In this document: one piece after another, positions 17,329 through 39,486 of the stretch
How positions within the stretch are numbered: the first letter of the stretch is position 1
Layout of the letters: every line of letters starts with the position of its first letter
Assembly (NCBI GenBank): GCA_035437985.1
Contig: DAOMZH010000001.1
Span: forward strand, 11,575 to 75,574
DNA: 64,000 nt
Reading direction: 5' to 3'
Origin: Polyangium sp.
GTDB lineage: Bacteria > Myxococcota_A > Polyangia > Polyangiales > Polyangiaceae
Position numbers and translations under genes: made by a program
The notes under the pieces: model-generated
Seen by the model: the letters and a program-made list of their open reading frames with translations, nothing else
Database searches by the model: none
Told to the model about the DNA's origin: nothing

Positions 17329-19227
17329 TCAATCCTTGTCGGGATGCTCCTTGTATTGGTCATTGAAGAAGATCCTGGCGGTTGTCACGGTGATCTCGGG
17401 ATCTTCCTTCTCGATGATCACCCGGAGATTTTTCCGATGGTTGTCGCCGAGACCGAACAGCCGAATGTTGTTCTTCTTTCCGGTGAGGATTCGATGAAGC
17501 ATGGTGGAATCACGAATTTTCTCCATGGAGTTTGTCGGATCGAGGGCGTAGGTTTTTTCATACGGCTCATCGATGTCCTTGGCGTAATCGGCACCCCAAT
17601 CCGTCACGGGCTTGATTTCGGCATTCGTGTTTTCCTGTGTCGCAGCGGTCATGAATTTCCGAATGAGGTCCGGCATGTTGAATTGGCCCGTCAGAATTTT
17701 CAGGTAAAGCCGCGTATCGGTAAACGGCGCACCCGACTTGAGCTGCGTGATCGTTTGGTCAATGATTGCCCGCTTTCTTTGATACACACGTTTCAGCGGA
17801 TGGTTTTCCGGTAGCGTCGACGATTGTATGGCCGTAAGTGCGTTGAGGGCCAACGAGGCTTCCGTATTTTTACGGTCGTATGGCCGGACGAGGGCCTGAT
17901 TTTCATTCTTCCACGATTGGATGTGTCCTCGTGCCAACATGCGGTTGCTCGCCGTGGTATGGTCCTGCTCCCATTGAGCGCCCCAATTCGCAACGTCTTG
18001 AGCATGCGTCTGCAAGGCGTTTTCTTTTGCAGCTTCAACGAGGTTGCGGCCCTGCGCTGCATTTACAGCGTCGCCTGCTAGTTTATTCTTTGTTGCTTTG
18101 AAAGGTGCTTTCGCCGAATTCATTCGGCTACGATCGTGTTCGAGCTGGCTTGTCTGGGTGCCGTTGATGTCCACCGTCGCGTTGAGAGAATCCCAGAGGC
18201 CCATCAAGCCCATTGCATATTTGGGTAATGCTGCTTCGAGCGCATGTTCTCCGCCCACGTCCGCGGCCCCGGGATACAGCAGCGGCGACTTTTCTTTGCC
18301 GCCTTCATAAAGATATTTTTTGATGCCCGTAGCAGCAACGACATCATCTAGAGTTGTCCAGCTGTGAATTTCTCCGAGTACGAGGTAGTCAGGTAGTCGG
18401 ATCCACGTTTTTTCGCGGTCGACGTATCCGATGTCCTCGGTTTCCCCTTCGGCGTAATCAGTCAATTCTTTATTATTCTCGAAATATCGCGATCGGCCAT
18501 CAGCAATCATCGCCGCGATATTTCGAGCCCCGCCCCCTTTCTCACTATCCGCCACCGAGATCCAATTGGCTTCGGGTTTCGCTTCCTTTTCTTCCGCACT
18601 ATCCGAAGCGAGCGTCAGCTTTTTATCCACGAATACTTTGCGCTGCACGACTTCGGGACCGGCAATCGACGTAATTGGCACAATGGCCGCATGCTCAGCC
18701 ATTGCACCATTCTGTGCGCTTGCCTCGACTGCGTGTTGCCCCATACGCGTGGCTTCTTCTTCGAGGCCAGGTTCGTCATTGAGGCCGACACCTTTGAGTT
18801 GCTGCGTTGCTTTGACGCGACCTTGGCGCTGCTGAACGATGTGCCAGGCTTCGTGTGGCAAGTGTTTTTCCTGTCCTGGGCCGAGATGAATCTCGCTGCC
18901 TTGTGCAATGGCGAGCGCGCCTAGACGTGCGGGCTCGGGCGAATTCGCGTGCACGCGTACATCCGCAACGTTAATCCCTGACAAACGCCCGATTCCATTT
19001 ACCAATGGGGTCGGCAATCCCGTGAGGGCGGGGGGGCCCTGGGGGGGCGTGCCGCCGAATGTATTGGCGATGGTTTGGCGTTGTGCAACGATTCGAGGGC
19101 TATCGTTCAATGCACCGATGGGACCGGCAGCGCTGAACTGCGGCATTTGCGCTTCGCGAGTCGACGATGTTTCTTTCGTCGCGTTTTCGGAAGATGGGGA
19201 CACTCCCTTTTGTTTCGAAGCCTTCAC
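17329..19227 (-). CDS. eCIS cargo candidate: N-terminal DUF4157 domain plus ~440-aa C-terminal domain of unknown function
   Basis: INVADVRVHANSPEPARLGALAIAQGSEIHLGPGQEKHLPHEAWHIVQQRQGRV is the DUF4157 signature (HExxH-like). The start overlaps the ATPase stop by 4 nt. The C-terminal part is Lys/Asn/Glu-rich and visibly more AT-rich. Confidence 0.8.
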   Translation of the reverse strand: MKASKQKGVSPSSENATKETSSTREAQMPQFSAAGPIGALNDSPRIVAQRQTIANTFGGTPPQGPPALTGLPTPLVNGIGRLSGINVADVRVHANSPEPARLGALAIAQGSEIHLGPGQEKHLPHEAWHIVQQRQGRVKATQQLKGVGLNDEPGLEEEATRMGQHAVEASAQNGAMAEHAAIVPITSIAGPEVVQRKVFVDKKLTLASDSAEEKEAKPEANWISVADSEKGGGARNIAAMIADGRSRYFENNKELTDYAEGETEDIGYVDREKTWIRLPDYLVLGEIHSWTTLDDVVAATGIKKYLYEGGKEKSPLLYPGAADVGGEHALEAALPKYAMGLMGLWDSLNATVDINGTQTSQLEHDRSRMNSAKAPFKATKNKLAGDAVNAAQGRNLVEAAKENALQTHAQDVANWGAQWEQDHTTASNRMLARGHIQSWKNENQALVRPYDRKNTEASLALNALTAIQSSTLPENHPLKRVYQRKRAIIDQTITQLKSGAPFTDTRLYLKILTGQFNMPDLIRKFMTAATQENTNAEIKPVTDWGADYAKDIDEPYEKTYALDPTNSMEKIRDSTMLHRILTGKKNNIRLFGLGDNHRKNLRVIIEKEDPEITVTTARIFFNDQYKEHPDKD

Positions 19228-20582
19228 GCTCCACCTTTCCTTTCCTTCACGTATTCCAAGCGAATGCCTTGGGACAGATCTTCGGCGCTGATGACGTTTC
19301 GACCGTGTTTCAAAGCTTGAAGTGATGCATAACGAACGATGTTCATGATCGAGCCACCCGACATTGCATGATCGTGCGCGATTTTTTCCAAATCAATGTC
19401 CGAATCCAATTTCGATTGCGACGAAAAACCTTGGCGCCAAATAACGAGCCGTTCATCGGGACGAGGGAGCGGAAAGTACACAATCGATTCAAAGCGCCGG
19501 GAAAATGCGTCGTCCAGATTGTCGCGCTGATTGGACGCCAAAATGGCGACGCCGGCAAAACTCTCGATTCGCTGCAGCAAATACGAAACTTCTTGGTTCG
19601 CAAACCGATCGTGCGCATCCTTCGTTTCGCTGCGTTTTCCGAATAACGCGTCGGCTTCGTCAAAAAATAAAATCCAATTTTTGTATTGCGCTTGGTCGAA
19701 AATCCGCGCCAAGTTTTTTTCCGTCTCCCCGATGTATTTCGACACGACGAGCGACAAATCGACTTTGTACACATCCCGCTCGGTGGATTTACCTAGCAAA
19801 CAAGCGGTAATGGTTTTTCCTACGCCCGGCGGCCCATGAAACAACGCTCGATATCCCGGACGCAATTTCGACGCCATTCCCCAATTGTGCAGCAATGTGT
19901 CGCCATGTTCGAGCCACGTCTCGATGTCTTCCAATTGCTGGCGCACACCGGGATGAAGCACGATATCATCCCAGTCCAAATTCGTTTCGATACGTTTGGC
20001 CGGAAAACCAGGGCCGAAATCCGGACGGCGTGTTTCACCCGTCGTGAATAGTGACACACAATCCTCGGACAAACGGAGGGGGGCCTTCATCGGCAGTTCA
20101 TCGCCTTGGGCCGCAAATCGAAGAATGCCGTGCGCTCGAAGCACATGGTCGACCGAGAACCGCTGTTCGACGCGGAATCGGACCAGCAAATTGCTCCCGC
20201 CGAGCACAAAAGCGAGGGTTTCTCCTGTTGGAACGAATTCTCCTTCGGCTCCGAGACGCACGCCACCAAGCTCGACGAACCGCCGGTCCAAGTTCGGATT
20301 CTTGGCGACGAACATATCGAGCAACTGCGGGCGCACGTAAGGAACCAGGGTCAATACCAAGGCTACGCGATCGATAAAGTCGACCTTGTAATGCCGCAAA
20401 AAGCTGGCATACGGGGAAGGGGAATCGCTCAGGTCCGGTGGCGCTATGTGCGAAACTTCGGCCAAACTCCCCGAAGTCGGCGTCGTCGTGCTAAAATAAT
20501 GTTTGAAACGCGCGTCAATGATCTGGGCAAACCACGCCAATTCGCGTTCCAAATCGCGGGCATTGAGTTCCACGGGCGTCAT
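19224..20582 (-). CDS. eCIS AAA+ ATPase (Afp15/Cis15 position)
   Basis: Walker A GPPGVGKT, Walker B ILFFDEADALF, SNQRDNLDDAFSRRF. ATG 20582 overlaps the upstream stop (ATGA). The ORF-track start at 20699 would overlap the upstream gene by 121 nt. Confidence 0.85.
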   Translation of the reverse strand: MTPVELNARDLERELAWFAQIIDARFKHYFSTTTPTSGSLAEVSHIAPPDLSDSPSPYASFLRHYKVDFIDRVALVLTLVPYVRPQLLDMFVAKNPNLDRRFVELGGVRLGAEGEFVPTGETLAFVLGGSNLLVRFRVEQRFSVDHVLRAHGILRFAAQGDELPMKAPLRLSEDCVSLFTTGETRRPDFGPGFPAKRIETNLDWDDIVLHPGVRQQLEDIETWLEHGDTLLHNWGMASKLRPGYRALFHGPPGVGKTITACLLGKSTERDVYKVDLSLVVSKYIGETEKNLARIFDQAQYKNWILFFDEADALFGKRSETKDAHDRFANQEVSYLLQRIESFAGVAILASNQRDNLDDAFSRRFESIVYFPLPRPDERLVIWRQGFSSQSKLDSDIDLEKIAHDHAMSGGSIMNIVRYASLQALKHGRNVISAEDLSQGIRLEYVKERKGGA

Positions 20583-39400: not shown

Positions 39401-39471
39401 GACCGCCTCATTCCCCTCGTCACATTGGTCACATGTCGACCCATCGTCGCGACGTCCACGTACACAATGCC

Positions 39472-39486
39472 TCAAGTTATGTGCCA
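39472..39486 (-). promoter_or_regulatory. Candidate sigma-54 (-24/-12) promoter of the eCIS operon
   Basis: The minus strand reads TTGGCAC-ATAAC-TTGAG. The -24 TGGCAC is perfect and the spacing is correct. The -12 is TTGA instead of TTGC. It lies about 72 nt upstream of ATG 39400. Confidence 0.35.

Follow-up and report, generated by a model that had tools for sequence, protein, structure and literature searches.

Operon and nearest solved relatives

A 22-kb block of phage tail-like genes in contig DAOMZH010000001.1 of Polyangium sp. raises two questions: whether it encodes a contractile injection system (CIS) of unusual layout or one more member of a known subtype, and whether the particle it would build leaves the producing cell. 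The block comprises 18 co-directional open reading frames (ORFs), all on the minus strand, to which all operon coordinates below refer, at 17329-39400 of the window, i.e. the whole 64-kb stretch of DNA that was analysed; absences reported for the window cover its large ORFs. Over a span of 22,072 nt the coding density is 98.8%, five neighbouring gene pairs overlap by 4 nt (GTGA, ATGA, ATGA, ATGA and GTGA on the coding strand), and the widest intergenic gap is 74 nt, in agreement with the 18 genes, the tight spacing and the five overlaps listed in a first-pass annotation of this DNA. The locus is almost certainly a CIS related to the subtype Ib systems. Best matches and shared features place it in the Afp/PVC superfamily as an operon most likely of subtype (clade) Ib, and its layout is the documented norm of that subtype, so that the locus adds another example of a known system.

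Of the 18 genes, 15 had Pfam matches (E-values between 1e-5 and 1e-92), and the genes for the sheath, tube, VgrG-like spike, gp25 and Baseplate_J proteins are contiguous, each scoring above the Pfam gathering score. These profile searches upheld the sheath, tube and baseplate assignments of the first-pass annotation and its statement that every structural class of the particle is present. The 1007-aa wedge, the 340-aa fibre and a 285-aa protein have no Pfam match and were placed by other means.

The sole sheath gene, cis2 (36578..37936, 452 aa; Pfam Phage_sheath_1 and Phage_sheath_1C), had its best match among Protein Data Bank (PDB) sequences over the full length of All3325 (2.7e-126, 425 bits) from the thylakoid-anchored contractile injection system (tCIS) of Anabaena sp. 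PCC 7120 (all3327-all3313; PDB 7b5h/7b5i). The sheaths of AlgoCIS from Algoriphagus machipongonensis (1.5e-120, 406 bits; PDB 7adz, 7aeb) and SalCIS from Salmonella enterica subsp. salamae (2.3e-111, 376 bits; PDB 9r9h, 9r9n, 9rce) followed closely, whereas the Pvc and Afp sheaths were weaker (1e-42 to 1e-71, at most 245 bits) and those of R-type pyocin and T4 matched at about 1e-5. The cap, Cis11 and Cis12 ranked the solved relatives as the sheath did, with tCIS, AlgoCIS and SalCIS far ahead of PVC/Afp.

The first gene, cis16A (38816..39400, 194 aa; Pvc16_N 9.6e-26), encodes the putative cap or tail terminator, with PDB matches to All3327 (3.9e-17), the SalCIS DUF4255 protein (6.1e-11) and the AlgoCIS cap (1.3e-9). 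A start near 39486 had been proposed earlier; ATG 39400 is most likely the true one, because Pvc16_N aligns only from residue 49 onwards in the longest ORF (which runs to 39532), the solved cap proteins are 192-197 aa long, and a GAGG-containing sequence lies upstream of this ATG. The following gene (37962..38819, 285 aa) had been described as an extra unknown gene between cap and sheath. Because a profile of its product and 15 homologues from the same operon position matched SalCis16b (2.9e-16), All3326 (1.7e-13) and the AlgoCIS cap adaptor (1.1e-12), it is the predicted cap adaptor gene, cis16B. The cap would thus consist of two parts, a short Cis16A and a Cis16B, as in subtype Ib systems.

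Two giant genes encode the predicted baseplate wedges. The gp6/Baseplate_J-like product of cis11 (27459..31649; Baseplate_J 3.8e-8) is 1396 aa long, as opposed to 607 aa in Afp11 and 728 aa in Pvc11, and matched Alg11 (1.2e-99) and All3317 (4.2e-98) far better than Pvc11 (2.9e-32) and Afp11 (1e-25). Subtypes Ia and Ib differ in organisation, afp11 being notably longer in Ib, and the Salmonella loci were assigned to Ib via afp11 (Chen et al. 2019, PMC6899500); AlgoCIS has been described as clade Ib (PMC8894135). The gp7-like product of cis12 (22161..25184, 1007 aa) was placed by PDB sequence matches to All3315 (1.1e-79, ending near residue 513) and Alg12 (1.8e-78), and also to SalCis12, Pvc12 and Afp12.

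According to coverage profiles, the core of Cis12 (aa 1-640) is conserved among relatives, and the variable stretches are Cis12 aa 650-1007 (22161-23235) and the poorly conserved central insertion of Cis11 (aa ~250-690, 29580-30900). A word-based search recovered only two relatives of the Cis12 extension, and its clear homologues were confined to one Thiothrix locus and one Chryseosolibacter locus. The AlgoCIS authors count the gp7-like part of Cis12, like the Cis11 cage, among evolutionary hotspots.

Further structural genes lie between the sheath and the first wedge gene. The inner tube gene cis1a (36101..36574, 157 aa; Phage_T4_gp19 2e-32) is followed by the tube paralogue cis1b (35591..36028; Phage_T4_gp19 1.4e-18), which encodes 145 aa from ATG 36028, a start taken from the gene calls in loci L001 and L002, the latter a relative of 96.8% DNA identity on a 448-kb contig of GCA_964462915.1. 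The tube-family adaptor gene cis5 (35095..35604, 169 aa; Phage_T4_gp19 6.1e-28) and the gene for a spike plug, cis6 (34925..35098, 55-57 aa; DUF5908 4.2e-15), come next; the plug of AlgoCIS is Alg6 (PMC8894135). The product of cis7 (34179..34922, 247 aa) had been annotated as a LysM initiator. The tube initiator assignment is supported by CIS_tube (2.2e-42), and a LysM-like C-terminus is readable in the sequence (TVRAGDTL...GQELLFPP), but the Pfam LysM model gave no score at E≤0.01. The VgrG-like spike gene cis8 (32548..34173, 541 aa; Phage_base_V 1.5e-20), whose product has more than 1,200 homologues at E≤1e-20, precedes the genes for a gp25-like sheath initiator, cis9 (32117..32551, 144 aa; GPW_gp25 3.7e-22), and a PAAR-like spike tip, cis10 (31677..32099, 140 aa; CIS_spike_tip 3.4e-43).

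Downstream of cis12 lie the tape measure gene cis14 (20579..22153, 524 aa), matched over its full length by CIS_TMP (1.5e-92, 311 bits), and cis15 (19224..20582, 452 aa), encoding an AAA+ ATPase with a single AAA module (AAA 7.7e-26, AAA_lid_3) which also matches NCBIfam CDC48/PAN-like models. No tandem repeats were found within the operon, and no Rfam families or tRNAs in the window.

Gene order among relatives

The layout had been called non-canonical on four points, namely the cap gene in first position, one sheath gene instead of three, the additional gene between cap and sheath, and the fibres between the two wedge genes. All four depart from subtype Ia (Afp/PVC) only and are usual among the nearest relatives. 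The tCIS cluster all3327-all3313 opens with Cis16A and Cis16B, which together form its cap, All3327 being the cap protein and All3325 the sheath, and its Cis13 and Cis12 are All3316 and All3315, respectively (PMC8894136). The Cis11 match in tCIS is All3317, so that the fibre protein All3316 is numbered between Cis11 and Cis12, as here. The AlgoCIS cap likewise consists of Alg16A and a “cap adaptor”, Alg16B (PMC8894135), and the sheaths of tCIS and AlgoCIS are each built from one protein. In a catalogue of CIS fibres, the fibre genes were downstream of Afp11/12 homologues in about 90% of cases, and 23.4% of loci had more than one fibre gene, with Myxococcota enriched (PMC12923769).

A survey with a Cis8 alignment recovered 577 relatives from many phyla in GTDB species genomes, of which the best 80 loci were scored; a genome scan with Cis11 alone recovered no relatives. 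The cap gene was upstream of the sheath gene in every locus scored for it (68/68), and a single sheath match was found in 67 of 73. Fibres lay between cis11 and cis12 in 28 of 61 loci, and Cis16B was detected in 25 of 68 at single-sequence sensitivity. A complete Sorangium genome had the same gene order.

Of the named systems, tCIS supplied the best sheath, Cis16A and Cis12 matches, and it resembles the present locus also in its Cis6 plug and long Cis11. It differs in Cis13's transmembrane domain, the Cis19 crown, another Cis12 extension and a single fibre gene, where two are found here; its thylakoid anchoring cannot apply, as the host is not a cyanobacterium. AlgoCIS shares with the present locus the cap with its adaptor, the Alg6-type plug, a long Cis11, a gp7-like Cis12, the AAA+ loader and a cargo made of a disordered N-terminus, DUF4157 and a variable C-terminal domain. 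It has Alg19 (TssK-like) fibres and two cargo genes, in contrast to two Cis13-type fibres and one cargo here, its sheath is 692 aa instead of 452 aa long, and its cargo C-terminal domains are unrelated to the present one.

SalCIS, with the best Cis16B match in SalCis16b and homologous sheath, Cis11 and Cis12 proteins, differs by its bidirectional operon and by SalCis20, a protein with transmembrane helices and a peptidoglycan-hydrolase-like domain, nothing comparable to which was found here; nor was a counterpart found of its atypical SalCis13, a proposed inner-membrane anchor. Afp and PVC (subtype Ia) belong to the same superfamily and have the same parts (Afp1-16 equivalents), but they differ in three sheath paralogues, the shorter Afp11 and Pvc11, cargos without DUF4157, and, by Afp gene numbering, a one-protein cap (293-295 aa) encoded last and a fibre gene after afp12.

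Fibres and fast-changing parts

Two cis13-type fibre genes separate the wedge genes. Fibre 2 (25203..26303, 366 aa; Gp10_C 4e-7, Collar 4.7e-5) ends in a T4 gp10/gp12-like collar and a tip with HxH motifs, and its PDB match is a Photorhabdus tail fibre (9qgo, 8.3e-14); by these similarities it resembles the receptor-binding fibres of phages and PVC. Fibre 1 (26378..27400, 340 aa) had no Pfam or PDB match, and its single-sequence AlphaFold2 (AF2) model was unusable, with a predicted local distance difference test (pLDDT) score of 44. It is nevertheless the predicted second fibre of the system, because its N-terminal region aligns with that of fibre 2 (31% identity over about 175 residues, E 7e-11, clearest in the first 40 residues) and is followed by a beta-rich repeat shaft.

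Across relatives, the homology of the fibres extends over the first 130-160 residues and the tips vary. Homologues of fibre 1 were found only in L002 and L003, and its lineage-specific C-terminal tip occurred, among the best 80 of the 577 loci, in near-identical relatives only.

In the alignment with L002, DNA identity falls to 88-93% at 33300-33900, 31800-32100, 26400-27000 and 25200-25500. These four stretches correspond to the middle of Cis8, the spike tip Cis10 and the C-terminal part of each fibre, and in this one pairwise comparison the drops would fit faster change in the parts that contact the target.

Predicted cargo protein

The last gene of the operon (17329..19227, 632 aa) overlaps cis15 by 4 nt, and its annotation as a DUF4157 cargo at the 3′ end was borne out by a match to eCIS_core, formerly DUF4157 (2.8e-6). 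Residues 1-70 are 79% disorder-promoting, and the eCIS_core domain with its HEAWH motif occupies aa 72-136. The architecture equals that of AlgoCIS Cgo1 and Cgo2, and the protein is accordingly named here a predicted Cgo-type cargo. In AlgoCIS, Cgo1 and Cgo2 fill the tube lumen, and their loading depends on Alg15 and on the disordered N-terminus, which acts as the loading signal. Loading does not require DUF4157.

The C-terminal domain of about 440 residues (aa ~190-632, 17332-18660) belongs to a rare family. A word-indexed search returned 12 relatives, and an exhaustive phmmer search 98 representatives among 1.84 billion proteins; eight of ten sampled relatives carry eCIS_core. No Pfam family matched 12 family members even at E≤10, and neither the single sequence nor a 43-sequence profile matched any PDB sequence. 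The AF2 model was mediocre (pLDDT 64), with a best Foldseek E-value of 0.79 and no PDB fold match.

In an alignment of 43 members, GExH, two Glu and GDxH are invariant, and a conserved Arg comes after the last of these; E286, H288 and H597 of the full-length protein are among the invariant GExH and GDxH residues. These motifs suggest a metal-dependent hydrolase, and GExH...GDxH may resemble motifs of the EreA, ChaN and Tiki hydrolases. The domain (GExH...E...E...GDxHR) may represent a new enzyme family of injected toxins, where “toxin” and “hydrolase” are tentative terms.

Released particle or cell-bound machine

By analogy with AlgoCIS, the spike (Cis8, Cis10), plug (Cis6) and baseplate (Cis7, Cis9, Cis11, Cis12) would nucleate assembly in the cytoplasm, after which tube and sheath would polymerise, with Cis14 determining how long they become. 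Cis16A would close the tube, with Cis16B joining the cap to the last sheath ring, and Cis15 would load the cargo into the tube lumen via its disordered N-terminus. Lysis of the producer cell would free the particle. The two fibres, with a common baseplate-docking N-terminus and different tips, would bind the target and trigger contraction of the sheath, and contraction would expel tube, spike and cargo.

We consider it probable that the locus is, as a whole, a subtype Ib CIS operon that would assemble such a cargo-loaded and lysis-released particle. For the mode of action taken separately, a released extracellular particle is moderately favoured. Release by cell lysis is preferred because the fibres are of phage type, membrane-spanning parts are lacking, and there are no Cis19- or SalCis20-like genes. 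A hydropathy scan, which would miss weakly amphipathic anchors, gave no membrane-spanning segment for either fibre, Cis11, Cis12 or the cargo, and the only near-threshold hydrophobic stretch of the operon is in Cis14. The gap of 7 nt between cis12 and cis14 leaves no room for a Cis19 crown gene, and no SalCis20-type gene is among the 18 operon genes. The first-pass annotation had likewise read the system as extracellular, from the presence of fibres and the absence of a type VI secretion system (T6SS) core; both observations stand, and the extracellular mode itself is something we infer, since some close relatives are thylakoid-anchored, T6SS-like or probably inner-membrane-associated.

Several points weigh against this explanation. 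No lysis genes (holin, endolysin) were found among the large ORFs of the window, as had been noted earlier for the surroundings of the operon, and subtype Ib includes systems that are not released, i.e. tCIS, T6SSiv, and SalCIS with no release detected. The placement in subtype Ib is a probable one from best matches and shared features, and the cargo domain has no recognisable fold (pLDDT 64, Foldseek E 0.79). In the literature on extracellular contractile injection systems (eCIS), release is described as occurring simply on cell lysis.

Alternatively, the same machine could operate without leaving its producer, unattached in the cytoplasm like that of Streptomyces or on a membrane as do T6SSiv, tCIS and, in its proposed mode, SalCIS, and may then serve, e.g., contact-dependent killing or programmed cell death. 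The close relatives are of both kinds, including the released AlgoCIS and MAC, the T6SS-like T6SSiv and the thylakoid-anchored tCIS, and eCIS and T6SS-like modes occur side by side in closely related clade Ib systems, as the AlgoCIS authors emphasise. Such a mode is supported by two of the closest solved relatives, one thylakoid-anchored and the other without detected release, and by the lack of holin and endolysin genes in the window. The results of the hydropathy scan speak against it, as Cis13 of tCIS has the membrane-spanning segment that both fibres here lack, and so do the missing SalCis20-like gene and the 7-nt gap that excludes Cis19. Two phage-type fibres with variable tips also fit the recognition of targets outside the cell, and we hold an intracellular mode to be unlikely.

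Source and neighbourhood of the operon

The metagenome-assembled genome from which the locus derives is a third-party-annotated NCBI record from activated sludge, labelled Polyangium sp. (Myxococcota). The sheath, a flanking activator and other proteins are already in GenBank, identical to HRI62588-HRI62616 of an 83-kb contig, and the sheath sequence is identical on an activated-sludge metagenome contig. The locus is thus already public under generic names, and no paper describing it was found. The GC percentage of the window is 52-61 with a mean of about 56, which we take to be a low value for Polyangium, so that the genus label may fit only loosely.

The flanks of the operon contain several T6SS-type modules. 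Directly upstream and on the same strand are a DUF2169 gene and a KAS-like (PRK06147) gene (40239-42367, -), followed by a TssI/VgrG gene (45908-47956, +; TIGR03361, 460 bits). On the other side, the 3′ part of a second VgrG gene lies at the start of the window (51-1514, +), and a PAAR-like Rhs toxin gene, an LRR/FGE-sulfatase gene and a second Rhs gene follow (3269-13304, -). A gene for an 843-aa HEAT/TIGR02270 protein and a sigma-54 activator gene together span 13529-17313 (+), the activator (16219-17313, +) being without a sensory N-domain and converging on the cargo gene. A second sigma-54 activator, with an FHA domain, is encoded beside a Ser/Thr kinase (51427-54297, -). Other neighbours are a Uma2-family endonuclease (50491-51441, +), two esterase/peptidase S9-like genes (57518-60771, +) and a protein with a 5′-nucleotidase C-terminal domain (62807-63982, -), none of them related to lysis or phages.

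These modules had been overlooked in the first-pass annotation, which found no T6SS at the locus. Its statement that the locus is not a canonical T6SS was sustained, with no TssJLM/TssBC/ClpV core genes in the whole window, and the flanking modules are not membrane-complex genes. Its conclusion that the operon is not a prophage agreed with the absence of capsid, portal, terminase and integrase genes among the large ORFs of the window.

A sigma-54-like sequence, TGGCAC-N5-TTGA, is located at 39471-39486 (-), 71-86 nt upstream of ATG 39400. As a candidate operon promoter it was rejected and is a weak lead only: the -12 GC is missing, the strict pattern misses the site, and the relaxed pattern occurred twice where 0.66 were expected, a count that 16% of shuffles reach. 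No such site was present upstream of cis16A in 68 related loci. In 39300-40300, neither a sigma-70-like promoter nor a terminator was detected. An apparent excess of conservation in the 430 nt preceding cis16A, in comparison with L002, is unremarkable given the overall DNA identity of 96.8%.

Because only two near-identical loci among the best 80 of 577 share the T6SS-type neighbourhood, the flanks are read as a lineage-specific weapons island that is not part of the CIS. It is very improbable that island and CIS form one functional unit, in which sigma-54 control or parts would be common to the CIS and the VgrG, DUF2169 and Rhs modules, the sigma-54 activators and the FHA/kinase pair, the modules providing alternative spikes or cargo. 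If it were so, a phage-tail-like particle could carry T6SS-type spikes or Rhs toxins, or could share their regulation.

The position and strand of the DUF2169 and KAS-like genes would suit such a coupling, as would the TssI/VgrG gene, the second VgrG fragment and the two Rhs genes within 25 kb, the two sigma-54 activators nearby, and the retention of the neighbourhood in L002. However, the neighbourhood was present in none of 77 more distant loci with readable flanks, the CIS encodes its own spike, tip and cargo, and the upstream gene pair is about 840 nt from the likely cis16A start (707 nt from the longest ORF). The sigma-54-like site, with its defective -12 element, its frequency not above chance and its lack of conservation, likewise tells against shared regulation. 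Myxobacteria usually carry a canonical T6SS elsewhere in the genome, and such a system would explain orphan VgrG/Rhs islands.

The chance that the locus is instead a tailocin or a decayed prophage tail module is close to nil, for the sheath, tube, gp25, Baseplate_J and fibre genes, common as they are to myovirus tails, are accompanied by the CIS-specific Pvc16_N, CIS_tube, CIS_spike_tip, CIS_TMP, eCIS_core and DUF5908 families, an AAA+ loader and a DUF4157 cargo, head, terminase, integrase, repressor and lysis genes are missing from the 64 kb, and the sheaths of R-type pyocin and T4 match so distantly.

Significance

The locus represents one more complete injection system of subtype Ib, from a wastewater myxobacterium, and the known picture of how such machines are built or organised is unchanged by it. 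Its chief value is that the reported oddities of layout are shown to be the documented norm of the subtype. The modest interest of the locus rests on the cargo domain, the two fibres and the T6SS-rich neighbourhood, and the combination of two interchangeable-looking fibres with an uncharacterised cargo domain may interest those who engineer CIS fibres and cargos, as well as researchers of myxobacterial predation.

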